This document shows, one piece after another, positions 6,715 through 36,036 of a stretch of DNA of 64,000 bases (the stretch's first letter is position 1; each line of letters begins with the position of its first letter). Under the pieces are notes generated by a model, which did not search any database, was not told where the DNA came from, and was given only the letters and a program-made list of their open reading frames with translations. The stretch spans positions 250,517 through 314,516 of the forward strand of contig QPGO01000075.1 of the NCBI GenBank assembly GCA_008632985.1, given 5' to 3'. The position numbers and the translations under genes are program-made. This DNA comes from Psammoneis japonica. Taxonomy: Eukaryota.

Positions 6715-7353
6715 CTCTGGGGTTTGGGGTAAAGCGAATGACAGTACCTGAGGAATATATCTACGTCATGAATAGAAGAAGACGGTTGATGTTTGCGATA
6801 ATACCAATGTCAGTACGCTCTTTTTCTCAAATGGTAGCTTGTGTGTCTGGTTGGTCCTCTTTCGATGGCGTAACAATCAAACCACGGTTATCTCTCTCTC
6901 TGGTGATATGAATATGCGTTGTCATATATTGCGCCTCTTTTATCACTCCATGATAGGTGGTTCGCTATTGAAGGAATGGATCCTTCACCAATCACTCTTT
7001 AGAGGACAGTCAGTGTTCTGGGATGGACAACCAAGAGCGCCGCCTCGAGAGCATATCACACATGGACGCTGGCTTGAACCAAATAAGCTGAAAGGCAAAA
7101 ACAAACCCAGTGAGAGCGTCTTTCTCGGATTACCAGGATTGTTTCAAACACAGAAGATGATACTAAAGCGCCTCATTGTCTTATGACGATCCCCAATGAC
7201 GGCATCCCAGAAACTCGGTCCCGAACAGTCCATGAAGCATGAGGCCATGACTTGAGCTTTTTGGCAGTGCGGAAGAGCCTCACTGCCACAAAATGTTGTT
7301 CCTGAAACTGTCGCGGGTCGTGGGACCAGAAAGTTTGGTCCCCAAACTAAAGT

Positions 7354-8094
7354 ATGAATTCTCTCGCTTCATCTCCAACCAGGACCTCGACATCATTTCA
7401 TTCAATGGAAAAGACCGCTAATGAACCGATAGGTCAGAAAAGGTGCCGGAAAAGTACCGCCACCGACCTTTCAGGACGTCTGGAGCATCAGAAAGCTGCT
7501 CTTGCAGAGGCTGAGCGGCCTGTAGAAAAGCTGCGTCATGACATTATCAAGACAGAGGCAGAACTGAGAAAAGCCACATTACTCTCCCCTTCAGAAGCGC
7601 CGGTACAGCATGTGTTGGGGAGTCCGGATGTCGTGGTGAATGAGATCTTTGCGTTTCTCTCCATACCTGACCTCGGGCGTTCTGCCGCTGTCTGTCGCGA
7701 GTGGACAAGTTATGCTCGTAAGGAGCAACTCTGGGAAACTAATGCAATGAAACAGTGGCCGCATACTCCGTCCTCTGCCATATCTAACTTTTACAGCTAT
7801 TGCCGAAGTCAGGTTACACAAAAAACTTTCGAAGGGAACCTCGTTTATCCATATCACAACAAGCAGGTGAATAGCATGTATGCCAACGACGACTAATACA
7901 TTATCTACGTGTTACCGAGTATTATGGAACATACGGAGGATGGACAGCAGAGACCTGTATCTCGATGTGTAAAGTTGGACGAGTCTCTAGAAACTCAACA
8001 TGGTAAACAGGATCTCTTTTTGAGGAATCGATCTGTAACTGCCTCGATCGTTGTACACACAAGTCGGACGTTTTACAACCGCCGCTTGAGTTGA
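7354..8094 (+). pseudogene. F-box protein, copy 1 (in-frame TAA at 7894-7896, 3' part truncated)
   Basis: F-box motif VLGSPDVVVNEIFAFLSIPDLGRSAAVCREW..EQLW. Homology to the paralog at 24138 continues past the stop. Confidence 0.7.
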
Positions 8095-8480
8095 TTTGCA
8101 GCATGGATCTTTTTTCAAACTTCACCTCGCTGCATTTTTGTTGCACCAAGACGCTTGGTTTCCACAATTCTCTACTTCATAGGCTGGAACCGAATCCAAT
8201 ATATGTCGTTACACGAGCGAGTTAGCAAAGCTACAGTACAGATTTTCATTTCGATTCCCTATTATAGTCGTGTATTGATAGGCTTTCACGAGCGAGTTAG
8301 CAACGCTACAGTACAGATTTTCATTTCGATTCCCTATTATAGTCGTGTATTGATAGGCTTTCGTTTCCGTAGCGCGATTTGAGTAGTAGCCCAAAGGACA
8401 ATCCAAGCACATGTTGATGTCACTCGTCAAATCCCAGGAAGACCTCAAGAAACATTGCAAGTGTGAAGGGAATGAACAGG
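8095..8480 (-). pseudogene. Degenerate duplicate of the SWEET 3' end and its downstream region
   Basis: Aligns to ~26080-26410 (tttttcaaacttcacctcg, gagttagcaaagctacagta, catttcgattccct, gcccaaaggacaatccaagcacat, gtcaaatccca). Confidence 0.75.
8212..8361. repeat. 75-bp tandem duplication
   Basis: 8212-8286 and 8287-8361 are identical except aaag/aacg. Confidence 0.95.
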
Positions 8481-8612
8481 CGTCGACCTCGCAGCACTGC
8501 ACAAAGCTAATTATATGACCATGTGGCTAGTTTGCAAGTTAAGTCTTAGAGTAGTTAGAGATTAGTTCTTTATAAGATAGGCTTAACTATCCTTTTCCGG
8601 GGGAGTAGGTGC

Positions 8613-10079
8613 TTAGTTACAAAAATGATTGTTGTTGTTGTTGTTGATAAGTATCGGATGAATCAACCCTTTGTGCTCTTGGAAAGACCTAAAATACTTC
8701 AAAGGAGAGTGGTCGGTCAACGTGCCGAGGCAAGCCAAAAGCGGTCGTCTTTCTTGTAGAGATGCACTCTCCATCACAGTGGCAACAATATTTGATGATG
8801 CAACACTGCGTCGCAACCAAACAATCCTCCCAGCTGGAATGGTCAGAGGGGGGGAGCCATTAATGGGCTTCACCTGACACTTGGTGGCCCGCAACACAGC
8901 TTGCACCATTTCTTCCGGTGCTTCCCCAAAGCCGGTGAGGAGCTTTAATATACCCCAGTGTGACATGGTTTGTTGTTCTTGGTTAATAGCCGCAAGGCAT
9001 TTGCTCACGATGCGCCATTGGTGGAGACTGTCCGAAGTGAAACCATCTTGGCAATTTATGAAGGCAGTGATGTGAGGTTGCAAGTCCTGAACAACGTTAA
9101 CCGGATAAAATGGAGGCACAGGGCCAAAGACCACACATCGGACTGGTCGTTTTACCAGCTTCTTGCGGAGTATCATTATTGTCATAAGGATGGCAGCGGA
9201 ACCTCCCATGGAGTGCCCCGTGAGGATGAGTTCATATCCTTCATCTATGGACGAAAAGTCACCAAACGAAGATGATGTAGTGGCCTTTTTCCAAGTCTCT
9301 CGGGCCAAGTCGGTGATCCCACGGTGTGCCTGGCCACCATAGAATGGGACAGAATCCAGCTGCATGAATCTGAAATAATCTGCAATAGTATGACATCCAC
9401 GTACGACTAAAACAATTTGCCGGTGGTGGTGGTCCAGCACAACAGAATGGCTCATGTAGTCTATGTTCCTTTCATGATCCCAGTTACGTACAACAACATC
9501 TGATTCTTTGACGCCAGTTGCGTCACAGAAAACCTGTATCTGTAGTTGACATCGGCGACCCAGGCAGCATTGGAGTACACTGCCGTGCTGCTTGCTTTGA
9601 GCGGCCGATACGGCTTCCAGCCCCGCCACCATTTCACGCCCATAGATGGCACAAGAGTACTTTAGCATGCGAATAGCCTCCTCCCACGTTCCGGGTGTTT
9701 CATCCGTCAGCGAGGGTAGCTGTTCCAGCTTTGCTTCTGCTTCTGGTGAAAAGTGCAAACGCCTATGAATTCTCGCAAGAATCCGTAAGCTGAAGAGCAC
9801 GTTCCAGTGGAACAGACCGTCCTGCACTTCCTCGTAGCATCCAGAACGAACGGCATAGCTACGGATTCCGCGCCAAATTTCAGCGTTCTTCTCCAGCGCA
9901 ACCTCTTGTTGGAACTGATTCCGGAAGAATCGAAAGAAGAACAGGAGATTACATAGAGCGTGAACGATGTGATCGAGCAAACCAAGCCGGTACAGGAGGC
10001 TCTCGGTAGTTGTCAGGAGGGTTTTGCGGCAGAGCCACGTCGCCGGCAGAAGGATGATGAACAGTGCGAGAAGAGACAT
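8613..10079 (-). CDS. Class 3 lipase / diacylglycerol lipase-like protein
   Basis: 488-aa ORF with IVLVVRG, AHRG, LILTGHSMGG (GxSxG), FGPVPP and C-terminal LTDH; hydrophobic N-terminus. Confidence 0.88.
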   Translation of the reverse strand: MSLLALFIILLPATWLCRKTLLTTTESLLYRLGLLDHIVHALCNLLFFFRFFRNQFQQEVALEKNAEIWRGIRSYAVRSGCYEEVQDGLFHWNVLFSLRILARIHRRLHFSPEAEAKLEQLPSLTDETPGTWEEAIRMLKYSCAIYGREMVAGLEAVSAAQSKQHGSVLQCCLGRRCQLQIQVFCDATGVKESDVVVRNWDHERNIDYMSHSVVLDHHHRQIVLVVRGCHTIADYFRFMQLDSVPFYGGQAHRGITDLARETWKKATTSSSFGDFSSIDEGYELILTGHSMGGSAAILMTIMILRKKLVKRPVRCVVFGPVPPFYPVNVVQDLQPHITAFINCQDGFTSDSLHQWRIVSKCLAAINQEQQTMSHWGILKLLTGFGEAPEEMVQAVLRATKCQVKPINGSPPLTIPAGRIVWLRRSVASSNIVATVMESASLQERRPLLACLGTLTDHSPLKYFRSFQEHKGLIHPILINNNNNNHFCN

Positions 10080-10572
10080 TAATCACGTAAAGGGCTTCCC
10101 AGAGTTGATGGCGGTGAAGAGAGACGAGACAGTACGACGACGAAGGCGCGAACCATCATCTGGAACACGCCGTAATATGTTGACTGAAGTGATGATATCG
10201 ATTAAGACACAACTGCTTTGTGATACCGTAGATAGAAGATCGAAGGTCACAGTCAAAGACAAGCCTCGAAAAATTTGAACATGCTAAGGTTAGTCATGTA
10301 TGACGGCGCAATTTTTCGATTTTTTTGAAAAAATGATCGGACTAAATCAGCACTATTCACACATTGATATGTTAATAACTGAAATTACATAACTAAGTCT
10401 GAATATATATATTTTCACAAAGAATTTTCGTGGTTGCGCTGGTTTCGTGTTGCGCCACTTTTTATCTTTTTTATCGTGGAGACTCCATGCATTCTCCAAT
10501 CATTCTATCGGTACCGACCGTGACTTCTCATCATTTATAATTTATAACACAGTTGGATAGTGGCAGCGCGTC

Positions 10573-11544: not shown

Positions 11545-12790
11545 CATGTATGTACGATTTGAGTCACTGATTCTTGGCTTGATCTGCATGATGAAGGCGT
11601 GGAGTACAGTACTTATTATAACGCACATGACTCCAGCCTATGATAAGGCATGTCTAAATCAATTCCTCGAAATGGCTGGAGTTCAATTGCATTGGTGGAT
11701 TTTTTTAATTTCTGGAAGCCTGTGCGTCAGTGACCTGGTTCTCTCTTTTAAGCTGTAGTGGAGTAAAAAGTGCTATCAGTAGTTTTTCGAAGAGTTCCTG
11801 GATACGAGGTGCTGTGATGCTTTAGTTCGTCAAATTTTACCTTGCTGCATTTATCGAAGGTACGCCCGGTAGTAATAAAGACACCTGACATCCTCAATTC
11901 TTCACTTAGTCTAGGTTGAAACCGAACCCAGCAATTGCCTTTACATGAGTGAGTTAACAAAGCTACAGTGTGATCAAATGATTTCCATTTCGATTCCCTG
12001 CCAGTCGTGTGTTTGTAGAGCTTTTCCATCGCCATGACGCAATTTGAGTAGAACTTGTGCTGGCCCAAAGGACAATCAAAGAACATTTGGCTGACAAATG
12101 TTGATGTCATTCATGTCAAATCCCAAGACAGACCACAAGAAACAATTCATCAAAGTTGCAAGCGCCAAGGGAAGTGGAAGAATCATCCCAGCAACACTGC
12201 ACAAAGCTGATCGCATGCCCATGTGGCTGGCTTGCAAGGAAAGTTTAGAGAGTGGTCAGAGGTTTGTTCTGTGAAAGGTCAGCTTGTCTCTCTTTTCCTG
12301 TGGCTGTTGTTGCCTTGTTGCAAAAATGATTCCTGTTCTTTTTGTTCAAAGATGTTGGATGAAGGAGCACTGCTGTCTGCATGTCTGTTGTGGCTGCTCT
12401 CATTGGAAAGACCCAAATGCTTCAAAGGAGAGTGGTCAGTCAACATGCCAAGGCAAAGCAATGTCAGTCATCTTTCTTGTAGAGTTGCACTCTCCATTGC
12501 AGTGGCAACAATCTTTGACAATGCAACACTGCATTGCAACCCAAACAATCCTCCCAAAACACAGCTTGGGCACTGCACTGTTTCCACTGGCACTTCCCCA
12601 AAGCCAGTGAGGAGCTTGACCACACACCCCAGTGTGACATGGTTTGTTGTTCTTGATCAACAGCTGGAGGGCATTTGCTCATGACATGTTGTCAGCATGC
12701 ATTGTCCAAAGTGAAACCACATTGGCCATTTGTGAAGAGAAGATGGTGACAGGTTTCAAGTCTGGAGCAATGCCAGTTGGATGAAATGGA
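11545..12790. pseudogene. Mosaic duplicate: tail of ORF 25659-26081 + SWEET 3' end + lipase 3' end, increasingly hypermutated rightwards
   Basis: 11550-11700 aligns to 25935-26080; 11945-12180 to 26176-26413; 12190-12790 to ~8490-9130. Confidence 0.8.
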
Positions 12791-13499
12791 GGCACAGAGT
12801 CAAAAACCACACATCAGGCTTGCAATCTCACAAGCGCTTCTCACACATGTCAGAGGCCACAATGTGGTGGAGGTTTTTGCTCTCCTTCACAAGCTCTTTT
12901 ACATTCATTTGCCAGCCAAAGGCACAATTCCCAGCAACAGTGTTTTGCACAGTGCATTTGCATTTCATGTTTCCATTTTGGTCTTAATTGGCTTTTCTGG
13001 AAAATGACTGCTCCAAGCACATTTGCTTTTTTGCTGTGCTTTCCATTGGATTTGTTCAATTGAATTTGGTTTTGGCTTTGTCTCCCCCCCCCCCTCATGT
13101 GCCTGTGTCATTGGCACACATGTGGTGCTTCACCATGTGACATGCTGCACCTTGTTGCCCCAGCACACACCATGCACCCACATTGCCTCTTGCTTTCCCA
13201 GATTTGCACACCACCTTGCTTGCCCTGTGGTGTTTTTAGCTTTTTTTTTTCATGAGCAATTTTTTGCACATGCAACCGCATTGTCCTTGTTGTCCGAGAG
13301 ACAACATCATCCATGTCACTTTGGGAGAACTTGGTGGTGGAGCTGCAAATCTGGGCTTTGCACTGGGCAAAATGGGGAGGTGGAGGCTGGTCTGGCTGGG
13401 CTCCTTGCCTGCTCATAGATGGGTGGATGCAACAAACCACTGGTGTCACTTGAGGCCATGAAATTTAGCAGGGCACTTCAGAGCTGCCCATGAAAGAAG

Positions 13500-14050
13500 G
13501 TGACTCAGTGAGTGTGCCATGACATGTGGCATCAATGGATTGTCATTGCACGTGTTGTTCTGCTCACATTTTCATTTTGCCTGTCATGTTTTCAGCATGG
13601 ACATCTGGGACTGCAAGTGCAGAAAGCAGCCCTTCCATGCCAATGCTCTGCATGACACAAGTTCTTTGACAACAGTTGTTCATTTGGGAAATCATGTTGT
13701 GGATCTTTCAGCATCCAGCAGTTGGGTCTGAACAGGTGTGAGTGATGGATGTGCTGTGCCGGCAAAGTGTGTCTGTGCATGATTCACCATTGCAAATGAT
13801 GGCTGACCAATCTTGCCAATTGATGGAGAGAAAACTTTTCCACCAATTGACGTGGCATCAGCCAGCCATGCACAAAAGCAATGTGGTTGTTGAAGATGGC
13901 ACCTGGGCAAGTGCAAAGTCTCAGTTGCTTCAGGATGGACTCTCCAGAGAGTGTTGCTGCTCCAGATCAGAACTTGGCACAAAAGGCAAGTGGCGATTGA
14001 GAAGTTTCACATCACACATCCCCTTTTGGCACTGAGACCAAACCAGCACC
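13500..14050 (+). mobile_element. Possible decayed DDE transposase fragment
   Basis: GVSDGCAVPAK (~13735) then, frameshifted, PAMHKSNVVVEDG..AK: loosely the SDGCxxQYK...HxK...DG pattern of some eukaryotic DNA transposases. Heavily degraded. Confidence 0.3.
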
Positions 14051-17000
14051 CATTGTTCTTCTTGACCAGCTTGTGGGCAACTCTTTGTGCTGGAGGACAA
14101 CACATGTGAAACAACAGCTTTCAGTGCTGCAAGGTGACACCATCAGATTCCAGTTCATGTGAATCCAAAGCAACCTGAAGCTTTTGAGTCCTGGGGAGTT
14201 GGGCACATGCGTTGTCATCACTGAGACAGAGATTGCAAGCAAGCTCAGCCAAGTGACCTGCCATCACCAATTTCTTAGACCAAAGAGTCTTGCCAAGAAC
14301 TTTAGACTCAGAGTTGTTTTCCATTTGAGTTGAACATTGCCAAACTGTTTGTGAAAAATGTCAATGGCAGCAAACAAATTAAGAAGAGTGTGTCATTGGC
14401 ATTTTGGTTGGATTTGAGGAAACAGGAGTGGGCTGGAAGGGAAGGTGCACGTGCCTTTGTGCAGGCACAAATTCATCAACAGCTCACCACCAGCAAAGGC
14501 CATGGCAAAAATGCCATGGCAGAAGAAAAAGAAGGGTGCATCTGCCGCTGATGAGCTGCTCCCAAGTCCAAGGGTGGTGGTGGCATTGGAGCAGATGGGA
14601 GCAAGTGGAGGGCTCCAGTCTCTCAAGAAAGAAGTGGAGGAGGTGGCTTGGAAAGTGCTGTTTCCAAAAGCAAGTTCCTCACTGAGGCAGACACATGTCA
14701 AGCAGTGGAAAGGTTTCATGGTCAATGCATGAGAACACAGCTGGCAAATTCAGCAAGCAAGGCTGGGTGGAAAAGTGGAAAGACTGGGCAAAAAGAAGTG
14801 CGTTCTAAATGCAATCAACACAAAAAGGAACACCTGCACAACTGGGCCAAAAGAGGTTGAGAATGATGCTGCTGACACATCCAAAGTCATGTTGACAGAA
14901 GAACAATCTCAGGAAATGCTTGGGCAGAATCACAGTGGTGGGGTCCCAGCAAAAGAAAAAGGAGAAAGAACACAAGGAAAAAAGGCAAGAAGAAGAAGAG
15001 GGCTGAGCCCATTGAAGTGCCATTTGTGCCAACTTGGGGGACAGGACTGTCAAAAACCATTGTGGGTGAGAAATGGAAAAAAGTGTGGGTGTGGTTGTGT
15101 GACAATGCACTGAAATTTTCCAAGAGCACTGTGGTGTGCAGAAAGATGGTGGAGTCAGGACACAGTGCAAGGATGTGGAGCTGACTGCAGCAAGTGACAA
15201 GGCTCTGGGGCTGTCAACATGTTGGAAAACTGCTGCTGGAGCATTTGGAAATGCAAGGCAAGGAAGGAACAGAAGATTCAACAGGGAGATGCAGACAACG
15301 ACAAGGGAGAGAATGAGAAACCACCACAGCACAACAATCCACACAAGCCTGGCAAAACGTTGGGAATTGCAGGGAGATGCAGGAATGGAGCAATTGAAGA
15401 AGCTGCATGATGAGGTGAAGAAAGACAGGGCAAGGGATGCAGGGGTGCAGTTCAACACAGGGCACATCAACAACAAGAAGGGACAAAGCAGCTGGAAGGG
15501 CAAAAGTGTCACAACCAAGATAAAAATGGCCCAGAAGGCAGCAAAAAGCAAGCAACACTTGAGCTGTCTAGAAAGACAACAAGGACAATGCAGAAGACAA
15601 AAAAGACAAAACTGTGAAGAAGAAAACCTGAGTGATGATGATGAGGGAGACACAAACAAAACTGCAATCTGGCACAGGAAGCACCTCTTTGCTGCCATGC
15701 ATTTGCTTGCAGCAACAGCTGACAGCAAAAGCAGCAAATCAGCAAATCATTGACACTCATTTGAAGCACGCATTGCATCAGTGTCTTAAAACACAAAAAA
15801 TTAAATGAGATGTTTTGAATGCCATGATTTTGGTTCACAGATTTTGCAGGGGTGGAGGGTGAGCAACCTTGCAGGGATGAACCATGGTTGTTTCACAGCA
15901 ACTCAAGTTTTCCTCACCATGTGGAGGGGGGCAGGAGAACTCCCACAGCGTGGAAACTTTTGTCTGTCACATTCAACAAGGGTTCAACATGTGCACAACC
16001 AGCCAACTGTCATGGCACAATCTTTCAACAATGTGATGGTTGGATGATTGCTGCTCTGAGACAGGCCCAGGCAGACTCTGTTGCCTCAATGTGTGCTCAG
16101 ATGCAGCACATCACAGCTGTCATGCGGATGACAGCAGAGCCTTCCACAGAGTGTGCATTCTTGGTCTGGGACAGAAAGTCACCGCTGGACAAAGATCATG
16201 TGGTGACTTTCTTCTGGGTCTCTTGAGCCAAGCTGGCAAGCTGTTCTTTTGTCCCAAACATGCACATCCACACAATTTTGGAATTTTGGCATTTTTTTCT
16301 GGGCAAACCTGCTGGCTGCCACAAACACAACATCAGCTGTGGATGGCAAAAGCAAGAAGAGTGGCAGCTGTTTCTTGGTGTCTGGTCACCACAGCATCAC
16401 AGGGGGACTTTCCTTGTTGTCCACATCAGGTCACACAAGTTGGAAATGAAATGGAAGAGCAACTTGAGAACTTGTCTTTTGCAGTGAATGCCATCCCTCA
16501 TCCTGAAGAGCCACTGGACAACTCTTGTTTGATGATGACAAATTTGCAGTGGATGCCCCCCCCCCCCCCCCCCCAGAGGCATCAGATGACTTTCAGATGA
16601 CAAAAAAGTCAGCAATTTTGCTGCTGGTTGTCTCAAGAAAAAAGCAACGTGTCCACAACACCCATGAGGAATGAACAGCAGCATTGGCAGTTGGCAGCTT
16701 TTTTTCATGTGGATCCAGCAGAGCACAGGGACAACAACTGCATCAAGTGGTGGCTCAGCTGTCAGCTGTTTCTTGTGATGGCAGCATGACAAAGACAACT
16801 TTGGGCAAGTCTGATGAGCACAACATGTGTGTGTTTCCTTTTTTCAGGGGTTTCATGCAACCTGTGAGCAAGCACACCTGGTGTTGCCAGAAGGCAACAC
16901 TCTCCCACATTTGCTGCCTTCTTCTTCATTGGAGCAAGGCTCTTTGCATTTTGGCCACTCCTTGACACACAAAGGTTGAGAAAGACAGCCTCAAGCAGAC

Positions 17001-17439
17001 TTGATGTGCTGCATGAAAATCTTCATTGCAAGTCAGCCTGACAAAGTCACCCCCAAGCACAGCTGTTCAAGGCCAAACATTTTTGACATTTGCTGCAATC
17101 AGCAGTCAGTGCCCCAATTGAAGAGAAGCACCTGCCATTCCAAGTGACTCAAAGTTCATTGCACCAGATGAATCATGACTTTTAATGACACAGCAACAGG
17201 GCTGCTGCTTTTTGACTGCTCTGCTGAAACAAAGCAACTCTTTTGCACCCGACCCTCCTGTGATGAAGGTGTGCAGCACACACAACCACATGACAGGCAA
17301 ATGAGAGTCGGCAACAAGGAGCCAGCAGAAGCAAAACAGTGGAGGCTCTTGTTGTTGATGGAGCACCACAAATGGGCCCACATCTGCATGTGTCGACAAA
17401 GTGCACTTTTGCTGTTTGGCCATCAGAGGAGACCAGTGG

Positions 17440-17630
17440 TTGACAACACACAAAATGCTTGCAAGGGCCTCAATGCACGAGACATGGGGGAAGCAGCTGT
17501 GGCAACCTGACAGACATGTGTGCTGTTGTCAAGTGTTTGACAAAGCACAATGCTTGCAAGGGCTTCAATGCATGAGACATGGGAAGCAGCTGTGGTGGTG
17601 ACCTGGCAGACATGTGTGCAGTTGTCAATG
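17440..17630. repeat. Two imperfect ~95-bp tandem copies
   Basis: aatgcttgcaagggc[c/t]tcaatgca[c/t]gagacatggg..aagcagctgtgg..acctg[a/g]cagacatgtgtgc[t/a]gttgtcaa occurs twice. Confidence 0.8.
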
Positions 17631-20600
17631 AATGGACTCAGCTGCAATTGGCCATTTTTGAAGGATGATTTTCTCAAGATCCAAAATCTGTGATGTTTTG
17701 CAATGTTTTGAGGGGCATCCATGACTGAAGCCTGCACTGTCCCATCAAAACTTTGCAGCACCCACACCCAGCAGCAGCATCTCAGATTGGTCCGCACAAT
17801 GACAATGCCTGTGCGTGCAGCACCTGTGACCTCTTCTTGTCACACAAGGAGAAAAAGCAATGTGTTTGCAGCTGGGGTCCAAAGTGCCATGAGATCCAAG
17901 AGAGCATTTGTGCTTGAGCCAAAGTGGGCAAAGATGAGCCTTGTTCTGGGCAATTTGTGCATCTGCAACTTGGAGGAGGCAAGCTGAAGAAAGCAGAGAA
18001 ATGGAAAGAGAAGCAGCACTGGTGAACCTTGGAATGTCTTGTGATGCGCAATTGACAACTTCTTGGTTCAGATTCTTGTTGCAAGTTGTCATTGGACCAT
18101 CAGTCAACTGTGCTCTTTTGATGGTGGCAAGAAACCATCTGCACCCCTGCCCTCAGTGCTGACAATGACAGCTCTCAAGGAGGTGGGTCAACTGTTGGCA
18201 CTTTGTGAAGAAGAGTTCTGATGAGGCATGTTTTTGCTGTCCTGGTGTGCCAATGAAGTCATTGTTGACAAAGATGAGGAAGTTGCCATGCAGCATGTGC
18301 AACCAAACACTGGACAAGCACAAGGCATTTGCAAAGCTGAAGGGTGACCAAGAGAGATTCAGCCAACTTGCTCTTGGCATTTTTTTTCAATGATGGAAAA
18401 ACATTGCATGATGACAAAGAAAACAAGACTTCAAAAGCACAATGCAGTCAGAAACAATTAAAGAGAAAGCTCAAGATGCATGCCAGGAGATGTCCCTGCT
18501 GAAACAAAGCAACTGGATGAGCACACACAGGAAGTGCAAAAAGCTGAAGCATCCAATGCCAGTGCAGCTGAGCCTTCATTTGATGGCTGCAATGTTGAAG
18601 ACTTTGCTGCAGATTTTCTCAATTCAAATTCTGCCACTTGTTGTCAACTTGCACCACCCAAATGGTTCATGCTGCTGACAATTCAACAGCTTGCAAGGGA
18701 CACATTTGGGCTTCACAGTTTCAAGGAGATGAAACATTGCATCTCCTGCTTCTTTGTTGATGCACCACTTCTTGTTTCTGAAATCCATTTTGATGGAAAT
18801 GGAAGAAAACTAAAATGTGATGCAACCAATCCAATGAAATTTGAACAGCTGCTGATTGTGGAGCACGTCATGCAGTGCCGCCCAGTGTGAAAGATTGCCA
18901 GAGCTGCTTTTGGCATGTCACATTGATGTCCAGTGAAGAGACATGTTAAAAATGGGCACCACAGTTCTTTTGATTCTCCTGATGCTGCACGATCGCTTTG
19001 ATGGAAGTGTTGGACAGGTTTGCTGAAAGGCTGCTTGACTTGGCAGCTTTTCTTTTTGACAGAAAAGACACTCCTGCAGAAACAAGGTGCAAAGACAATG
19101 CTGCAGGTTCCACACAAGCCAGCTTAAAAAAGCACTGTTTGTCAAGTGCAGTTTGTGAACTTTGTCACAGCATGCGCACTCTCACATGAGCACAATTGGG
19201 TGCACAGAGCTTGAGTGGATGAGGACAAATTGGCAGCATTGACTGGTGAGTGCAGAGAAGAGACACCAGTGCAATGGTGAAAGACCATGCTGTGCATGAC
19301 CTGCACTGCAGTGTGCCAAAGCACATTGGACAGCACTTGATGATTTGGAAGTTGGAGATTGGCTCAGTGCTTTGGTTGAATCAATTGATCCAGTGAAGTT
19401 AGATGGCAAAAAGGAAAATGGCACAATGAACCACATTTGGGTTGGAGCTGTTGAACATTCTCAAGAGTCTGGAAACAGCCTCATCAACCACACAAGCACA
19501 CACAGCCAAGATGTTGAATGCTCTGAAGAGTTTGACAGCAATGACTCTTGCAGCACTGGTCATGAGTTCAACTGGACAGAGACATGAGTGTTGGCTGGGG
19601 TGAAAAAGAATTCTTGCAACAACATCCTCTGCAGAATTCAGCAACCCTGACAGCAATGGTGAGGAGTTTCAAAGTGTGAGCACGTTCTTCTTGAGTGCAA
19701 ACAATGGCTCAACAAAAGAACTGAGAGAGTTGAAAAAGTAAAAAAGCTCAAAGATGCCAAAGTTGACAAGGTTGTGCTGCTTGTCTGTGAAGACCAGGCC
19801 TTGCAAAAAGCTCAAAATGAAAAGGTGCTGGCTTGCTCACTGCAAAATGATCCACATGCAGAGTCATTTCTTCAGCAACTTGAGCTGTTTGAGAGGCTCC
19901 CCAAGCTGCATGACTTGAAGGCCAACCCCGCCAGCAAAGCATGGCAAGTGCCTGCTTTGAAATGACAAAAGAGCATTGCTGGGATCTTCTCTGCTGGATT
20001 TGAAGCAAACTGACTCAGCCACACTGCAAAATGTGCAACCCAGAGTCACCTCTGGAAGTCCACTTGTGCCTGCACAAAATCCTGCCAAACAGCTTGGCGA
20101 CAAAGGTTTTGAGAAGGCAGAGCACCATTTTCTGCATTTCAATTGAGCACATGTGCCTCAAGTCTTGCAGCTGTGAACAGCCAGACAATGCAACACAAGC
20201 TTGAACTTTGACTTGGAGACAAGAAGGACATTTGCAGGGTGTGGCACCCAAGGAAGTGACTTTTTCTCAGTTCATTGCTGTGAATGGTCTCAGTGATGAC
20301 ATCTGATGCAATGATTTTACCAGTGCTGTTCCATGCATGTGGGAATGGGGCAGTCAGAAATGAACCTTGGCTTGCCACTCTGGTGGTCATGGGCTGACAG
20401 CAGTCTTCTTCCTCTCATCTGTTGGAACTGAGAATTGAGCAATGACTGAAAACAGTTGTCCACATTTTTTGGAGCTGGTTCATCTGTGGTGGTCACTTTC
20501 TGTTTCTTGCTGCTGTGCTTTGCTTTCTCTTGCACCACCATTGGTTCCGTCAAGAGTGTCACTTTGTCAATTGGAGATGGGGGCATTGTTTTTCAAAAGT

Positions 20601-20639
20601 GTCTCTGTTGGCATGATGCTGCATTTGGCAGAACATGAA

Positions 20640-22420
20640 AAGTGCTGCAAGAGGAGCATGTGCAAACACACTGCTTGTCCATTGTGGCATCAAGAGTGGC
20701 ATGAAAAAGGGTGTGACAAAAATTGTTTTGCATTGGTGTTGAAGCCCAAGCACAGCATGTGTGACCTTCTTGTGTCTTTTTTTGCTCCGCTGATTGCAGA
20801 TTTGATGACACTGCTTCTGTCTTCATGGATGGAATGCAACAAAGTTTGAACAGCCACACCAAACTGCCCTTGGCAAGCATCTTTTGCAGATGCAAAAGTT
20901 CATTGCAGCACTGGGCAAACTGCCACCTTGCTGCAGCAAAAAACCTCATTCAAGGTCATGTTCATTGCCTTTTTGGTGGAATTTCTTAACCAAACTTGGA
21001 AGCATTGAATCAAGCTCCACACAATCACAACAACAACTGTGGTCCCAACCCGTGGTTTTGTTTGCCAGCATCACAACCTTGTGAACCATCCATTTTCCAA
21101 TTTGCAGTGAGATTTTCTCCAGCTCTGGGGCTTTTTTTGTTGACATTGATCTTCTCACAGCCAACTCCAATTCCAACTGATCACCAGCAACAGGGCAGCT
21201 GAGTTGAACAGACATGACCCCAACACTGCAACACATGAGTTTGCACACATGGAATGGGCATGGCTTTGAAATCAAGCCAAGCACACAAAGGGGTGGCTCC
21301 TTCCCAACAAATTGCTCATTGTTGGATGCACTGCACAAAGGGGCCAAAAATTTCTTGCTCAATGGCTCACCTTTTTAAAAAGGCTCAATGACCCTTCAAA
21401 CTGCCATGACATCCAGCAGTCTGTGACAGCATCAGAGAATGACTCAACAGGGTTGAAGCCAACGACACTTCCCCAAGACAAAATGTGACAGTCTCCTGCA
21501 TTTCCTTCCAGTGGATTCAGTCAAACAAGATCATCATTTTTGTCAAGGACTGGGCAGTGCATGAACAGCACCACAGACTTGTCAAAGTTCTCAGTGCACA
21601 GTGCAGCCCACTGTGGGTTTGCAGCCTGTTGAAATGCTTTCTTGATTGCTTTTGCTGCAGTGTGTCTCCACCAGACCAATCTGTGCCAGCCAGCCTTGAA
21701 AGAATGCTCTTGAAGATTCTTTGAAACCCCATGTTTTTCATTTGCATTGGCTGCAGTCTGAGCCAAGAAGATTTGTCATTGCCATCCAGTGTTTGAAGTC
21801 ATGAGCACTGATGGGACAACTGGCAGGCAACAAGTCCTCCTTTCACACACTTTCCATGCACCAAACTGTGTGTCAACCTCAGAACAAACAACTTTGCCCC
21901 CCTGGAATGACAGCATCACCTTCTTTGTCCATCACAACACCATCAGTGCAACCATCTGCCTTCATTTTGACAAGTTGGTGCTCAGCCTCATGCGCACCAT
22001 GAGTTCACTCTGGACTCCATTGCACCAAGCACAGGTGCCACACTGGCAATTGATTGACACCTGGCAAAGTGTTGCACAGATCCCTTGCTCTTTGCAATGA
22101 TTGGTGTTGGTCAACCTCAGCAATGATGTTGCTGGCTTTGCCTTTCTGCGTGCACTTGTCCACCCATGCCTCTGCTTTTTAATCTTGTTGTTTTGTGCAG
22201 CCCTTGCTGCGCTCTTTGCTGGATGCCTTGCCCCATCAAAAACACAAAAGGAGACACCCCAGCTGAGACAAGCTTGTGGTGCACACAGACTTGACAGCTC
22301 CCAACAAACTCTTTGGCAGCTGTGGTGGCTGTGACAGGAGATGCTGCATTTGTGCAGGCACACCGATGTGTTGATCCCAGCTCTTTTTGGACTGGCCTCA
22401 ACAAGTGATGCAAACTGCAC
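20640..22420 (-). pseudogene. Decayed XPG/FEN1/EXO1-family nuclease followed by a SWIM-like Zn finger (probably TE-borne)
   Basis: In order on the minus strand, across frameshifts: GINTSVCLHK (22349-22378), FCVFDGARHPAK (22214-22249), GAHEAEHQLVKM..DG..DGVV..GDAVI.GG (~22000-21890), LLGSDC (21753-21770, H3TH LLGxDY), PFSCHS*CHNGQAVCLHML (20655-20713). Confidence 0.65.
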
Positions 22421-24137
22421 TTTGTTGACATTGCCAAGGGCTTTGGCCCATGGGTCACCAATTTCTGTTGGAGGGCATTTGTCCCACAATTTTGGGAAGC
22501 TGCTCCTGGTGTTGGTCTTGCTGAACTCCCTGCACCCAGTCTTCAGCCAGAAAGGAGCAACTGACCGGATCTTCTCAGATGCTTTGGACATTGTTGAGGT
22601 CATTTTTTCTGTGCTGTTTGACCCCTCATCTTCTGGCTGACAGGCTCCACAATCATCACATCAATGTCCCAGGCACCGGCAAGAGAGGCTCATGTTGTGG
22701 CTTGTTGTTTCCCTGCCTTTTGTTGGTGACAGGAGTCACTCTGTCCCGTGTCATGCATCCAAGCTTTTGGTTTCTCAAGAAACTTGCAAATGCTGTCTCA
22801 GAGACTCCAGTGCTGTCTGCACTTGGTCTCTTCAATTGCTTTGGCTGGTGCGCCAAACAATGGTCGAGGAAGTGTCACCTGCCTCACAATTGTTGAACCC
22901 TTTCATCCAGCCACACAGCTCACGAGCTTTGCTGGATGTGCTTGGAACAATTCCAGCAGTGCAAAGTCAAGAACAAGCAACCCTTGAGGCATTTCAAGGC
23001 ATCTCCTTCATTTCAGATTGGGCGCGAGTCATGTTTCATGCAGTGTTCTTGAGTGGTTTGGACGAAATGGCAAATGGCCCATGTTGCTCCGGCCGCTGAT
23101 GCCAGCAACCATGAGGATGGTGCAGCACACATGTGAAAGCCCATTGACTGGTGGCACCTTGCTCCAGAGCATGAAGGGCCCCACTGGTGCTGCAAAGAGC
23201 CCACAATCACAGGCTGTCCATGACCAATTGCAGCATTCCAAAATGTGTTTGTTCTGTTGATCATGTGCAACAGCTTTGAGCTTTTCAAAGTCCAACCAGC
23301 TGGCAAGCCATGATGTGGAATCACTGTTTTCTCTCTGCGTGCAGTGGCAGAATTCTTTTCAATGTCCCCAACACATCCAGAGCACAGCCACATCATTTTC
23401 TTGGTCTTCAACCCTCGCAGATTTTCTGCCAGAGAGAGAGCTCAAGTCTCATGACACATCTCTTGAACATCAACACCAGCAGGTGGATGGCCAAAGCCAA
23501 AGCAATTCATTCCAGCCTCTTCAAAAGCAGCCTCAGCCAACACAATGAAAGAGGTGGCAATGAGGTCAACAAGCAACGAGTCTTCCCCTGGAGATCCCAT
23601 GTGTGGAACGAGAGCAAGATCCATTGAGGGTGACGTTGACTGGGCCTTCTGCAGTGCTGCCTTTTTTACCAGAAGATGCTCCCAGCCACCTTGCTCGTGC
23701 AACATTTGCAACTTCACATGATTGATGCTTGTAAAACATGTGGATGCATGACCAAGCTGTTGCAAAGCAGAGTCTGCACCCCGGTGCTTCCTGGCCCTTT
23801 TCTGCTGCGAGCAGCACCAAGCAAAAGCAACAAACTTCTCTCTAGAAAAGAGGGAAAGAGGGGGATGGAGAGAGGGCATGAAGCACAAGTGGAGTGCTTT
23901 AGAAAAGGAACAGGTCAAGATTTCAAGACTTGAGAATGTCCATGAATTCATCATGTGCCGAAGCCATGCCAACGAAAATGATTGCTGTGTTGAAATAAAA
24001 TGACGCATCCTGCCGGGCGAAAGACAGGTGGTGCGATGCTGACCGGCGCACGCAGCATCATGCCGCCCATGATGGTGTCACAGTTTATCGCGTTGCTGCA
24101 TCATCATCGTCCCTGAACAACAGCACGGCATCATGTC

Positions 24138-24945
24138 ATGGCAGAGCGTTGCTCAATCGAAAAGGCCGCTGATGGATCTGCAGGTCAGAAGAGGTGCAGG
24201 AAAAATGCCACCGCTGACCTTTCAGAACGTCTGCAGCATCAGAAAGCTGCTCTTGCAGAGGCTGAGCGGTGCGTCAAAAAGCTGCGTCATGACATTGTCA
24301 AGACAGAGGCAGAGCTGAGAAAAGCCACATTGCTCTCCCCTTCAGAAGCGCCGGCACAGCATGTGTTGGGGAGTCCGGATGTCGTGGTGAATGAGATCTT
24401 TGCGTTTCTCTCCACACCTGACCTCGGGCGTTCTGCTGCTGTCTGTCGCGAGTGGACAAGTTGTGCTCGTAAGGAGCAACTCTGGGAAACTAATGCAATG
24501 AAAAAGTGGCCGCATGCTCCGTCCTCTGCCATGTCCAACTTTTGCAGCTGTTGCCAAAGTCAGGTCACACAAAAAACTTTCGAAGGGGACCTCACTCACC
24601 CACATTGCAACAAGCAGGTGAACAGCAAGTTTGCCAACGACGAGCACTACATTCTCTACGAGCTGCCGCATGTTATGGAAGACACAGAGGATGGACAACA
24701 GAGACATGCACCTCGATGTGCAAAGTTGGATGAGTCCATTGAAGTTCTACCTGGTGATCAGCATCAGTTTGAAGAGTCGATCTGCAACTGCCTCAATCGT
24801 TGTACACACCAGTCGGCCTTTTTGCAACTGCCGCTTGAATTGATTTGCAGCTCCTTTCCAGCATGTGAACTTCTCCAGAGATTCAGGGAACTCAAGATGT
24901 CCATTCTTCGGAAGTCGGACGGCAAAATGGCACTGATCTCGCGCA
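24138..24945 (+). pseudogene. F-box protein, copy 2, TpA-hypermutated and interrupted near 24946
   Basis: Near-identical to 7430-8100 but with Y->C/H, I->V, V->A, I->T, T->A changes at TA sites. Confidence 0.8.
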
Positions 24946-25658
24946 CGTGTGCGCGGTTATTAGACTGTGTAGGCGTGTGTGCGTGTGTGAGGTGTAAGTA
25001 GAATATACGTAGAATTACTACTGATGAGTTGACAGGCGGTGGATTTTCCGCCGGTACACAATCTACGCGGTCTACATGGAACATAAATTTATGTCTGTCT
25101 CTGAGGATTTTACATATCATTAACATTTCTTTGGTCTTTAAAATATACATACCCAAATTCAAAAAAGTGAGGAACACCCCGAAACACATTTTAGAATCTG
25201 AATAAAAAAAATTTCTATTTAACGGTCCGAACAGAGTCGCCCCGAAGCGCTTCTCAAAATATCCTCATATTGTATATAGTAAAACATCTACTATTACCAA
25301 AACAGAGTCACTATCGGATAAATAGATCCCGTGTTCTTCGCGCGCAAACAACACGATAACGCACAACAACACCATGGCGAGAAACGCGAACGCCGTCCCC
25401 TCATCTACAAGTTGGGAATACGAGATACTATTGAAGTGGTTGGACAATATGTATGCGCTGTATTCATGGGTCAAGTTGGGTTTCTTCTCGTTGCTTGTTG
25501 TTGCGTCATTTTACTACGTTTTGACCCACGCCGTGTTCTTCGCTTTGTTGCTTCTGCTCGCGCGCCACCAACAGCTCTTCCTGCAGGGTATGGCTAGTTG
25601 CTCATCACATCGAACCCAAACGTGCGCGACCAACTAGCCCTACCCCGGCTAACTCATA

Positions 25659-26081: not shown

Positions 26082-26235
26082 TGGATCGTTTTTCAAACTT
26101 CACCTCGATATTTATTGCACCAAGACACTTGATTCCTCAATTCTCTATATACTGTAGGTTGCACTGAATGCAATACATGGGTGAGTTAGCAAAGCTACAG
26201 TATAATCAAATAATGATTTCCATTTCGATTCCCTA

Positions 26236-27023
26236 CTAGTCATGTATTGGTAGAGCTTTTCCGTCGCCATAACGCAATTTGAGTAGAACTTGTGCTAGCC
26301 CAAAGGACAATCCAAGCACATTTGGAAGATAAATGTTGATATCATTCATGTCAAATCCCAAGACAGACCACAAGAAACAATTCATCACAGTTGCAAGCGT
26401 GAAGGGAAGTGGAATCGACTTTGCAGATTTCGTTTCCAATACTATCCTCAATGCTGCCAAGGGGCTCGCAAAGAGGGCGATACAAAAGGCTACCCCCATT
26501 GTTCCTAGAATAGTCGATGCTTGACCAGCAGGAAACATCAAACTAATAGCAATCACCAAGCACATGATGGCAACGACTGCACGTGTGTGCTGAGCAATCG
26601 ATCCAGGAAACGTTGGAGACGACTTGGGCGCGAATCTTGCAAAGCCGAAAAAGTAATAGAGCCCAAGAATCACACCTCCCATGTTACAAGACCAAATCTT
26701 GGGTTCCTGCTTCAACACGCCTGCGACAACAACAGAAAAAGAACGAGTTGATTTCAAATTGTGATATAGAAGGCCCGATGCAAAAACTAGTCTCTCTTCC
26801 TACCATACACAGTCCAAATAAAGGCATTGGAGATCATACTCGAATATGGCAAGAGGGGCAAATCTCCAACAGATTTTTCTTTTGCTATGTTGCGAATTGT
26901 GGGAATGGGTGACATAGACACAGCGATACTCGCCCATGGTGCAAGACTTCCACATATCGTCACCCAGGTAGCGGGCGATGCTTTCATGACCGCCGCAGCT
27001 CCCGCTGCTTCGGCAGGACTCAT
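26236..27023 (-). CDS. SWEET/MtN3 sugar transporter (exons 27023-26804, 26720-26236)
   Basis: SPIPTIRNIAKEKSVGDLPLLPYSSMISNAFIWTVYG, 83-nt GT-AG intron, second MtN3 repeat FASPLAALRIVLETKSAKSIPLPF..NCFLW..DINIYLPNVLG. Confidence 0.92.
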
Positions 27024-27555
27024 GAATGTTGTTGAAAAGATTGGAGAATACGCAAGTACAAGAAATAGAGCGACAATGTTGCCTGACTTCCCATTTCCAA
27101 GCCAACCGCCTGACACGATGCGAAGACTGATGACTGAAGATCGCTGGAGCGTGTCCGTTTGTCGGAATTCTGAAAAGATCGCGGTTTTTGTGGCCGCGCC
27201 GTTCAAAATCCTTCGTCCGCTGCTTGTCGTGTTTCGGAAAACACGACCAATTTGTCGCGCTAAATTTTTCGATATTTTGGCAATCGAAGCGCCGGGTCAA
27301 CTCAAAATTCCAAAAAATAATCGACGCCTCATTCATTTCCCTGCATCGACCAAAGGCGTAAGGAATTCGTGATCCAACCAGGAATTAACAACATGATGTC
27401 GATCCTGCCTGCGACTGAATCAGTCGAGACCCTAATTCGCGACGCTTTGCTCACGAACTCACAGCGCGTCTCAAAAATAAAAAAATCAATCGCGTTACTT
27501 ATCTGCGAAAAACTAGTAGAGTTACTTTTTATCATCAAAGATTCAAGCTAGAACA

Positions 27556-35171: not shown

Positions 35172-35199
35172 ATCGGGCTTTGTTCAATCACAGTCACCG

Positions 35200-35690: not shown

Positions 35691-35873
35691 TAAAGTCTGG
35701 GAGTACAGTAAACGGAAGACAAGCAGACTCTTAGTACATTTTCTACGTAGGAAAGCTTCCGGGTTCTTCCCTACCGTCGTGTTGAATTCTGAGTCACGAT
35801 TGCTGATTCGTGGGTAGAAATAGTCTGAAATCTGTCCTTTTGACGACGAAACAACACGGTGAAGTATGGGGCA

Positions 35874-36036
35874 CCATGGCGCTCTCCGGACGCCATTTTC
35901 TCAAAATCTAGTGGGGCGCACGACTGCGTCTCGACCGTAATTAAGCTTAATAGAGAAACTTATGCCTGTACGGCCATGAGACGCTTTCACGCGCCCCATT
36001 AGATTTCGAGAATATTGCGTCCAAAGAGCGCCATGG
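35874..36036. repeat. 163-bp imperfect palindrome
   Basis: Arms 35874-35919 and 35991-36036 match 40/46 as reverse complements; further inner pairs gcgtctc/gagacgc and ccgta/tacgg. Confidence 0.9.

Follow-up and report, generated by a model that had tools for sequence, protein, structure and literature searches.

Four TpA-depleted domains in a diatom genome and their probable origin in A:T→G:C transitions confined to TpA

Hardly any natural example is known in which chromosomal DNA undergoes targeted A:T→G:C editing. The closest described system, a TpA hypermutation that affects integrated viral DNA, comes from Bigelowiella natans (Mettrop et al., April 2026, bioRxiv 10.64898/2026.01.13.699255). 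There, direct measurement in mutation-accumulation lines recorded 231 mutations across two viral insertions, of which 230, every one at TpA, were A→G or T→C. Genome-wide, 124 clusters poor in TpA and rich in CpA and TpG were found; ADAT2-like adenine deamination was proposed as the agent (bioRxiv 10.64898/2026.01.13.699255). We found no report of TpA hypermutation in diatoms in the literature, this 2026 preprint being the sole report of the process that we found. The first-pass annotation of the locus described here knew of no such case in diatoms, which stood, but the process itself had already been reported in B. natans.

The locus is a 64-kb window, by which we mean the whole stretch analysed (64,000 nucleotides of contig QPGO01000075.1 of the diatom Psammoneis japonica). 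TpA depletion in four stretches of this window (D1 to D4, Table 1) is real, extreme and confined to these regions. The pooled domain cores (18,392 bp) contain 48 TpA compared with 747 expected at background density, an observed/expected ratio (o/e) of 0.04. Strand-symmetrised o/e values for TA, CG and CA/TG were 0.04, 0.10 and 1.83 in these cores, 0.07, 0.62 and 1.61 in the pooled zones in which only TA is depleted (4,424 bp), and 0.60, 0.99 and 1.14 in the pooled background (39,704 bp). From the pooled domain counts, TpA/ApT is ~0.05 and (CpA+TpG)/(ApC+GpT) ~2.0, while the GC content is the same in domains and background (0.472 vs 0.478). In 1-kb bins the TA o/e was 0.03-0.07 at 1-4000, 0.00-0.08 at 12001-24000 and 0.01-0.04 at 55001-58000, compared with 0.42-1.02 in flanking bins. 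The longest runs free of TA measure 1487, 1430, 1381, 1276, 1113 and 1009 bp, the background having 0.041 TA per bp. The domains are discrete, with edges sharp to ~100-400 bp, and TpA depletion is coupled to CpA+TpG enrichment: 85 of the 255 500-bp segments of the window combine a TA o/e below 0.2 with a TG/CA value above 1.5. For comparison, we used 79 metagenome loci (338 kb) around relatives of a window gene, on contigs that are gene-rich and mostly short. Among these, only 2 of 1234 500-bp segments had TA below 0.2, neither with TG/CA above 1.5, and no comparable TpA-poor domain was present. The first-pass annotation had estimated about 30 TA in 12700-24000, and the count bears this out (33 TpA in 12001-24000, where base composition predicts 821). 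Its four domains are likewise genuine and region-confined, with edges that had to be corrected to those in Table 1. The CpG loss that it described was found in D1, D2 and D4, over a narrower extent than the TpA loss, but not in D3.

Table 1. Coordinates of TpA-poor domains, decayed copies and reference genes in the window
Feature	Position	Strand	Remarks
D1, TpA-poor	1 to ~3974	.	Truncated by window start; TA o/e 0.03-0.07
D1, CpG loss	1 to ~3445		TpA-only margin 3445-3974
D2, TpA-poor, 12.7 kb	~11965/12049 to 24648	.	TpA edges
D2 core, TpA and CpG both lost	~12040/12210 to ~23959		TpA-only margin 23959-24648
D3, TpA-poor	~36273/36390 to 38769/39144	.	TA o/e 0.07-0.28; CpG o/e ~0.8
D4, TpA-poor	~54082/54219 to 58218/58315	.	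TpA edges
D4, CpG and TpA loss	~55090 to 58306		TpA-only part 54219-55090
SWEET 3' fragment and lipase 3' part, decayed host copy in D2	11944-12845
Lipase fragment, decayed host copy in D2	16134-16239
5' two-thirds of F-box copy B, decayed host copy in D2	24117-24648
F-box copy A, TA-containing, normal	7398-8102	+	F-box Pfam in ORF 7351-7893; reference for copy B
F-box copy B, mutated	24149-24851		Duplicate of copy A
Lipase_3 gene and 3' flank, intact	8287-10082	-	ORF 8613-10082, Pfam; reference for mutated copy
Third, normal copy of D2 left-edge segment	26122-26414	+	Used for three-way polarisation
SWEET gene	26239-27296	-	Its 3' part is the third copy segment 26122-26414
DNMT5 gene, complete, outside mutated DNA	41108-47986	+	Tudor, C5-methyltransferase motifs, SNF2 ATPase; 2-3 short introns

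Recognisable content of the domains is sparse. In D2, Pfam searches returned only the F-box besides a weak MtN3_slv trace. D1 shows no homology to the rest of the window, and neither its read-through frames nor those of D4 contain a Pfam domain. D3 holds a minus-strand frame of ~475 codons (37181-38608), interrupted by two TGA, for which no relatives were detectable. An LRR gene unit is present in two tandem copies, and D4 exactly fills the space between them; a comparison that tolerated transitions still revealed no homology of D4 to this flanking unit. Across all four domains, 60 read-through frames yielded no TE or viral Pfam domain, and the earlier description of this chromatin as TE-rich was not borne out. 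Since a high-copy, polymorphic 720-bp element adjoining D2 is not depleted in TpA, repetitiveness alone is not the trigger.

An unmutated counterpart exists for ~1.9 kb of the ~23 kb of domain sequence, in the form of the F-box, lipase and SWEET copies. For the remainder, composition alone suggests that the ancestral TpA content was probably normal. In the three-copy alignment, six sites are TG or CA in the domain copy but TA in each of the other two, and the reverse was never seen. The intact and mutated lipase copies were compared with 20 homologues. Tyr283 (TAT→TGC in the mutated copy) is Tyr in 20/20; Tyr463 (TAT→CAT) is Tyr in 15 and His in none; Tyr326 is Tyr in 7 and His in 2. Among the codons that differ, the homologues side with the intact copy at 48 and at 22 with the mutated copy, which carries four stops and shows Tyr→Cys/His and CGA→TGA as coding effects. 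By this outgroup check, in which the three-copy alignment and the homologues agree with the earlier proposal, TA is the ancestral state and TG/CA is derived.

The duplicates also reveal what was changed. Over 415 bp of the F-box pair, 14 of 18 TA became TG or CA, the conversion that the first-pass annotation had noticed in internal duplicates; two were kept, two changed otherwise and none changed in reverse, compared with 14 differences at 337 non-TA sites. Its suggestion that A→G change depends on a 5' T also withstood measurement: A→G per A was 0.42 at TpA (maximum 0.5) and 0.06-0.07 at ApA, CpA and GpA, and in the older lipase pair it was 0.34 at TpA and 0.11-0.14 in other contexts. At the TpA sites of the young F-box edge we counted 18 A→G, one A→C and one A→T. 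In the lipase pair, none of the 124 TG/CA of the intact copy is TA in the mutated copy, whereas transitions occurred at 85 of 647 other sites; double changes between TG and CA, seen at 12 of the 124, are as expected if a new TA or CG was quickly resolved. TG and CA outcomes are interleaved along the copy pairs. Only one copy of each duplicate was mutated, the normal copies (7398-8102, 8287-9167 and 26122-26414) being untouched, and the mutation edge at 24648 falls inside the duplicated F-box segment.

The TA that survive in the domains are not a random sample. They lie in NTAA/TTAN in 56 of 68 cases, compared with 616 of 1613 in the background (p 3e-13), TTAA making up 22/68 and 63/1613, respectively, and none lies in ATAT or ATAC. 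Concordantly, TAT was edited at 20 of 30 sites in the copy pairs, compared with 7/22 to 10/24 in the other three contexts. This 3'-neighbour effect is an enzyme-like context, and we count it in favour of the explanation preferred below. An equilibrium estimate places TpA loss at ~44 times and CpG loss at ~20 times the ordinary transition rate.

CpG loss in the cores is as expected from deamination of 5-methylcytosine (5mC), judging by the lipase pair, in which 26 of 33 CpG became CA or TG and C→T reached 0.42 at CpG compared with 0.11-0.19 elsewhere. The organism was confirmed to be a diatom, as the first-pass annotation had taken it to be, and it encodes the CpG methylation enzyme invoked here: a complete DNMT5 gene lies in the window. 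A tblastn search aligned it with a relative of 2190 aa carrying PF00145, PF00176 and PF21743, covering residues 166-2190 at 60-73% identity. Pfam detected SNF2 and Tudor in the window ORFs of the gene, and the translation of 42128-42727 contains stretches that we take to be C5-methyltransferase motifs, an ENV-type box among them. 5mC-driven CpG decay as the source of the whole signature was nevertheless rejected, because D3, the margins and the F-box copy lost TpA with no accompanying CpG loss; the last of these kept 18 of its 20 CpG. TpA loss extends 0.5-1 kb past CpG loss, the CpG o/e of TpA-only zones is 0.62-0.8, and D3 shows TpA loss alone; two separate processes must therefore have acted, as the first-pass annotation had supposed.

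We consider that the domains most likely arose in place, by a region-confined TpA-specific A:T→G:C process of the B. natans kind (probability about 0.8). The transitions would have acted repeatedly or over a long time until TpA was almost gone, each TA giving way to TG or to CA with similar frequency, according to the strand struck. In older cores, CpG would also have decayed to TG/CA through 5mC deamination, the TpA process being faster, reaching 0.5-1 kb further and able to act without CpG loss. As to the agent, a TadA/ADAT2-type deaminase that converts DNA adenine to hypoxanthine, already put forward by the first-pass annotation, is still the best candidate, although as a best guess it falls somewhat short of even odds. 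The target of wobble-adenosine deaminases, A34, invariably has U33 on its 5' side, a natural UA context. Pfam found no deaminase domain in the window ORFs of at least 130 aa outside the domains. Targeting may depend on chromatin whose state labels DNA as silenced or foreign, and the function may be irreversible inactivation of the DNA so labelled; the domains, as described above, gave no TE or viral domain that would identify such a target.

Among the alternatives, the best survivor places the initial damage on thymine. The T of TpA in marked chromatin would be the substrate of a TET/JBP-type dioxygenase, and T→C would follow as the oxidation product, 5-hydroxymethyl- or 5-formyluracil, mispairs with G or is repaired in an error-prone manner; the domain targeting would be the same and the chemistry different. 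TA is palindromic and TA→CA on one strand is TA→TG on the other, so the strand cannot be assigned and the sequence fits both chemistries equally; TG and CA are indeed equally frequent in the cores (2099 each), with interleaved outcomes. Oxidised thymines give rise to A:T→G:C mutations, and a preference for TpA has been ascribed to the 5hmU of dinoflagellates; a literature search returned no paper joining hydroxymethyluracil, dinoflagellates and TpA. However, no TET/JBP-type enzyme was seen in the window, and a modified T alone reads as T in polymerase-based sequencing, so that true mutations would still be required. The B. natans study, for its part, proposes adenine deamination, also without proof (bioRxiv 10.64898/2026.01.13.699255). 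On balance we regard the thymine route as unlikely.

Far less probable are two further readings. The first, also listed by the first-pass annotation, is Pol-eta-type error-prone repair that methylated chromatin would trigger through its 5mC or U:G lesions. Pol eta makes A→G at WA motifs, the cores lost both CpG and TpA, and DNMT5 is present; the fit is nonetheless poor, as A→G is not raised at ApA (0.06 vs 0.42 at TpA), transversions at the TpA of the F-box edge are rare (2 vs 18 A→G), and TpA loss extends to sequence with intact CpG, namely D3, the margins and the F-box copy. The composition could instead be intrinsic to foreign DNA, such as an integrated virus with its own avoidance of CpG and TpA, and would then owe nothing to mutation after integration. 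Most of the domain sequence indeed lacks a homologue or a Pfam domain, D4 is a discrete block between two gene copies, and viral avoidance of CpG and UpA is described in parts of the literature, albeit at levels that an o/e of 0.04 far undercuts. Such an origin is very hard to reconcile with the host lipase, SWEET and F-box segments inside the domains, which show the same conversions, polarised by outgroups, and with an edge that passes through a duplicated host gene.

The weakest alternative, an error of sequencing, base-calling or polishing where bases are modified, could draw only on the fact that a single run of unrecorded platform (X1) contains this sequence and may be the source of the assembly, hence not an independent sample, and it is scarcely credible given that ordinary transitions, transversions and indels are present in the older mutated copies too, with consistent coding consequences, and that Logan contigs, assembled independently of the window assembly from the accurate reads of X1, reproduce D2 with 0-3 differences per 1-3 kb, like the flank, at depth 58-68 (55 in the flank). 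The domain sequence is not an assembly or polishing artefact. None of the six differences between contigs and window in D2 or at its right edge (12000-24700) is at TA, and there is thus no sign of a process active today.

A bolder reading, which we regard as possible but rather doubtful, is that an ancient chromatin-guided DNA base editor, common to diatoms and chlorarachniophytes as distant SAR lineages, irreversibly rewrites TpA in silencing-marked DNA. If true, such an editor would outpace cytosine-methylation decay, reach beyond it and encroach on adjacent host genes, where it would turn Tyr codons into Cys or His and remove two of the three stop codons; it would rank with RIP and APOBEC as a third kind of mutational genome defence in eukaryotes. 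A natural enzyme editing TpA in double-stranded DNA would interest base-editing technology. Occurrence in a diatom would bring the process near genetically tractable relatives, which can be transformed and in which DNMT5 can be mutated, and the sharp domain edges, the 3'-neighbour preference of the agent and the loss of TpA before CpG are testable handles. There are practical consequences for annotation as well. Because GC content is unchanged, scans based on GC or on RIP indices overlook such domains; the scarcity of TAA and TAG produces long false ORFs in them, and homology searches fail there unless transitions are tolerated.

Compared with known systems, the domains share with RIP of ascomycete fungi the region-wise saturation with transitions, the destruction of coding capacity and the ability to leak into neighbours. 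RIP, however, converts CpA to TpA and raises TpA, whereas here TpA is destroyed (o/e 0.04) and GC content does not change. RIP was rejected on its direction, which is opposite by the third copy and the 20 outgroups, and on the single copy hit per duplicate and the edge inside a duplicate, which also speak against the RIP-like trigger implied by the first-pass annotation. With 5mC decay the cores share CpG→TpG/CpA and an encoded DNMT5, but A:T→G:C at TpA is beyond the chemistry of that process, and TpA loss is wider and faster. ADAR-type A-to-I editing of RNA likewise produces A→G. ADARs act on dsRNA of viral or repeat origin with a graded preference, whereas here chromosomal DNA was changed in place, nearly exclusively at TpA, on both strands in interleaved order and with sharp edges inside host gene copies; ADARs are, to our knowledge, confined to animals. 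Their preference is for a 5' U, according to work cited in a passage of the B. natans preprint (bioRxiv 10.64898/2026.01.13.699255).

The resemblance to B. natans itself is closest: A:T→G:C transitions confined to TpA and giving TpG/CpA, restricted to particular genomic regions, with clusters poor in TpA and rich in CpA and TpG as the long-term signature. The differences are the host, a stramenopile diatom instead of a rhizarian; the near-complete depletion (o/e 0.04, compared with a Rho of 0.45 in the NCLDV region of B. natans); the presence of host gene copies among the sequences hit, with no recognisable viral or TE genes; the additional CpG loss in the cores, the term CpG having no occurrence in the preprint text; and the 3'-neighbour effect, the preprint text containing no trinucleotide analysis. 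The evidence here is purely comparative, where the B. natans study observed mutations de novo. The same signature in a diatom would mean either that the process has a long history and a wide distribution in the SAR supergroup or that it evolved repeatedly, and the present case looks like a second, distant lineage with TpA hypermutation, here at saturation.

The first-pass annotation had noted by eye a scarcity of TpA in D2, one of four TpA-depleted domains of the window (D1-D4), and had ascribed it to a second, region-targeted mutagenic pathway that converts TpA to TpG or CpA. Counting in 1-kb bins bore out the scarcity, which is stronger than the estimate by eye: 33 TpA were found in positions 12001-24000, where 821 are expected from base composition (observed/expected ratio, o/e, of 0.00-0.08 per bin). 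Bins 1-4000 and 55001-58000 are depleted in the same manner, and the o/e in the flanking bins is 0.42-1.02. The cores, i.e. the parts of the domains lacking both TpA and CpG, contain 48 TA vs 747 predicted at background density (0.041 TA per bp), and the longest TA-free runs extend over 1009-1487 bp. The GC content of the domains is not shifted, because the losses of TpA and CpG offset each other in GC terms. A TA o/e below 0.2 combined with a TG/CA o/e above 1.5 occurs in 85 out of 255 500-bp windows of the stretch. In a control set of 79 metagenome loci around relatives of the window's carboxypeptidase (338,504 bp; a weak comparison, as the contigs are mostly short and gene-rich), 2 out of 1234 windows had TA below 0.2, and none of these had TG/CA above 1.5.

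Dinucleotide composition (o/e, pooled over both strands) of cores, TpA-only zones (domain margins and D3, CpG kept) and background
Compartment	Length (bp)	TA	CG	CA/TG	GC
Cores	18,392	0.04	0.10	1.83	0.472
TpA-only zones	4,424	0.07	0.62	1.61	0.501
Background	39,704	0.60	0.99	1.14	0.478

Coordinates of the features discussed in the text
Feature	Position	Strand	Remark
D1	1-3974
D2	11965-24648
D3	36390-38769
D4	54219-58306
F-box copy A (normal)	7398-8102		pair alignment; stops at 181 aa
F-box copy B (domain)	24149-24851		pair alignment
F-box copy B, open frame	24117-25001	+	294 aa
Tandem duplication, 75 bp	8209-8358		97% identity; F-box/lipase spacer
Lipase, normal copy	8287-9167		older pair
Lipase, domain copy	11944-12845		older pair
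ORF inside domain	3388-4323	+
ORF inside domain	14805-15746	-
D2 segment of high word depth	13003-13669
Mobile element candidate, 720 bp	24935-25656		13-nt inverted ends 24939-24951 / 25617-25629
SWEET (MtN3_slv) sugar transporter gene	26239-27296	-	two ORF pieces
Inverted repeat, 60 nt	35873-35932 / 35978-36037
D3 frame	37181-38608	-	~475 codons, 2 TGA
DNMT5 gene, complete	41108-47986	+	Tudor, C5-methyltransferase motifs, SNF2 ATPase; 2-3 short introns; between D3 and D4
ORF with SNF2 region of DNMT5	43808-47986
Tandem LRR unit 1	49177-54165		92-97% identity to unit 2
Tandem LRR unit 2	58296-63165

Two bins, 35001-36000 and 48001-49000, have an unusually high TpA content (o/e ~1.0) and low CA/TG (0.91-0.93); the former lies directly left of D3 and contains the 60-nt inverted repeat. 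The ORFs found inside the domains have translations rich in Cys, His, Gln and Trp. Long chance open frames (e.g. 313 aa) arise there because TA-depleted DNA is nearly devoid of TAA and TAG, and gene callers will over-predict in such domains.

The losses of TpA and CpG do not have the same footprint. CpG returns to its normal level at ~23959 near the right edge of D2, with TA still absent up to 24648; on the left side of D4, TA is lost from 54219 and CpG only from ~55090; and the two edges on the right side of D1 are ~500 bp apart. D3 has a TpA o/e of 0.07-0.28 and retains CpG (o/e ~0.8), and most TA are gone from the domain copy of the F-box gene, where CpG is kept (20 in the normal copy, 18 in the domain copy). 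These differences set the TpA process apart from CpG decay: it is faster, wider in reach and able to proceed without CpG loss, in support of the proposed second pathway.

The direction of the changes could be read from the window itself, where normal counterparts of three D2 segments (F-box, lipase and the SWEET 3' segment) are present. In the best-preserved 415 bp of the F-box pair, the domain copy has TG or CA at 14 of the 18 TA positions of the normal copy, keeps TA at two and differs in another way at two; no reverse change was found, and other sites differ at 14/337. A three-copy alignment at the left edge of D2 has six sites with TG/CA in the domain copy and TA in both normal copies, and none of the reverse type. 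As an outgroup test, 20 homologues of the intact lipase were aligned to both lipase copies. Tyr283 (TAT to TGC in the mutated copy) is Y in 20/20 homologues. At Tyr463 (TAT to CAT), 15 homologues have Y and none has H; at Tyr326, seven have Y and two have H; and at Ile342 (ATA to ACA), five have I and one has T. The stops at Arg315 and Arg446 of the mutated copy come from CGA to TGA, and among the differing codons 48 side with the intact copy and 22 with the mutated one. Both the copy comparisons and the outgroups therefore indicate that TA and CG are ancestral and TG/CA derived, so that the proposed direction holds. F-box copy B retains its open frame and an F-box Pfam match with residues altered by TpA editing (e.g. 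Tyr to Cys/His, Ile to Thr/Met); a gene reached by spreading hypermutation is not necessarily killed at once.

In the lipase pair, A to G occurs at 0.34 at TpA vs 0.11-0.14 elsewhere and C to T at 0.42 at CpG vs 0.11-0.19 elsewhere, and transitions affect 85/647 sites outside TA and CG. Among the 124 TG/CA in the intact lipase, not one corresponds to a TA in its mutated counterpart, and 12 show the double change TG to CA or CA to TG, as expected if a new TA or CG quickly resolves to either product. The core counts (TA 48, CG 103, TG+CA 4198) give, in a simple equilibrium estimate, losses of TpA and CpG at ~44x and ~20x the ordinary transition rate. The persistence in the lipase pair and this estimate argue that the TpA process lasted or recurred. 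There is no sign of present activity: few differences separate the window from the contigs of run X1 (the sequencing run containing it) in D2; none is at TA, and two are CpG transitions.

Surviving TA are biased in context: 56 out of 68 lie in NTAA/TTAN vs 616/1613 in the background (Fisher p 3e-13), 22/68 vs 63/1613 in TTAA, and none in ATAT or ATAC. These counts fit a per-strand effect of the 3' neighbour, in which TA before A would be most resistant and TA before a pyrimidine least. Editing in the pairs, counted by strand-context in small numbers, was 20/30 for TAT, 10/24 for TAA, 7/22 for TAC and 7/22 for TAG. The TG and CA outcomes are equally frequent (2099 each) and interleaved along the sequence; a manual count revealed no obvious strand-coordinated stretches (8 runs in 18 events vs ~10 expected). 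Such a sequence preference points to an enzyme rather than diffuse chemistry. Adenine deamination is our tentative choice (probability about 0.4). Thymine oxidation, which the sequence does not discriminate from adenine deamination, seems improbable; a literature search on it found no paper on 5hmU at TpA in dinoflagellates. Repair of the Pol-eta type, listed in the first-pass annotation as a candidate, is disfavoured: in the F-box pair, with both strands counted, A to G per adenine is 0.42 after T (ceiling 0.5) vs 0.06-0.07 after A, C or G. Rates of A to G that do not depend on a 5' T had been named beforehand as one of the possible refutations of the proposed pathway, which withstands it.

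An assembly, polishing or noisy base-calling artefact is unlikely, since contigs built independently from X1 span D2 in 1-3 kb pieces with 0-3 differences each, at word depths of 58-68 vs 55 in single-copy flank, which indicates accurate reads, albeit from one sample and maybe from the assembly's source. X1 is the only public run with the stretch (0.97 of sampled words present); X2 and X3, other runs of its sample, contain next to no sampled words, X2 contigs covering flank bins only and X3 contigs none, and no RNA run is listed among those containing the stretch. The D2 segment of high word depth has a summed X1 depth of 334 vs 65-110 elsewhere in D2 and 55 in the flank, and several contigs link positions of D2 that lie far apart. 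Other places in the genome may contain relatives of some D2 segments.

No TE or viral Pfam domains were detected in 60 frames read with X at TGA, only the F-box and a weak SWEET trace. The D3 frame had no relatives among 8000 scored candidates, and no LTR/TIR terminal repeats of the domains were found. Purine/pyrimidine-recoded BLAST and transition-tolerant Smith-Waterman comparisons with shuffled controls found the domains unrelated to one another and to the LRR unit, which argues against their being decayed copies of either; the only homologies recovered were to lipase, SWEET and F-box. D2 includes the decayed middle copy of a partly triplicated F-box/SWEET/lipase locus plus ~10 kb of other DNA, and the SWEET 3' part is duplicated at its left edge, where a weak MtN3_slv trace remains. 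D4 occupies exactly the spacer between the tandem LRR units, each with a gene for an LRR protein, an ORF of 440 aa that belongs to no known family, and a portion of an HA-domain ORF. The mutation edge runs through the duplicated F-box segment, and the normal copies of the duplicated segments are unmutated, pointing to a domain as the trigger, presumably through the state of its chromatin, rather than to duplication.

Directly beside D2 lies a 720-bp element of normal TpA content, with a word depth of up to ~6500 vs 55 in the flank (about 100-fold). One X1 contig and one X2 contig lack it, joining 24935 straight to 25656; the element is probably MITE-like, mobile and polymorphic.

The expectation of a diatom DNMT5 was confirmed by a complete gene within the window. 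It aligns with residues 166-2190 of its closest relative (2190 aa) at 60-73% identity; over the SNF2 region, relatives reach 76-80% and named diatom DNMT5 proteins 55-62% (Seminavis, Fragilariopsis, Cylindrotheca, Thalassiosira, Nitzschia, Mayamaea). The cores have lost CpG in the way that deamination of 5mC would predict. The window genes are those of an intron-poor eukaryote (HA-domain, LRR, F-box, SWEET, lipase, carboxypeptidase). The best matches of the carboxypeptidase have 58-60% identity, diatoms and Parmales 50-52% and a chlorarachniophyte 45%; by these matches the source is a diatom with no close sequenced relative in the collections searched, and the low chlorarachniophyte identity sets it apart from Bigelowiella.

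The analogy with RIP drawn in the first-pass annotation holds for the outcome and fails for the trigger: RIP is triggered by duplication, whereas the TpA process here would be triggered by a domain, with its edge inside a duplicate and the other copies spared. According to the accessible text of one source, some diatoms have a RID-like DNMT4 with no known function (PMC9998398); in that of a P. tricornutum mutation-accumulation paper, CG is the most mutable dinucleotide, and neither TpA nor hypermutation is mentioned (PMC6604790). This kind of process is already described, although a full-text literature search returned one relevant work, a preprint dealing with a single distantly related alga (Mettrop et al., bioRxiv 10.64898/2026.01.13.699255), and none on diatoms. 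In Bigelowiella natans mutation-accumulation lines, two integrated viral regions mutate ~1000x the rest of the genome, in some lines only; 230 out of 231 changes are A to G or T to C, all of these on TpA. The genome contains 124 clusters of TpA-poor, CpA+TpG-rich windows, and an ADAT2-like adenine deaminase was proposed without proof. Diatoms, CpG and trinucleotide analysis are absent from the preprint's text. To what is known from that system, the window contributes a host from another lineage (a diatom), an end-state at saturation, the relation to CpG decay, spread into host genes and the 3'-context.
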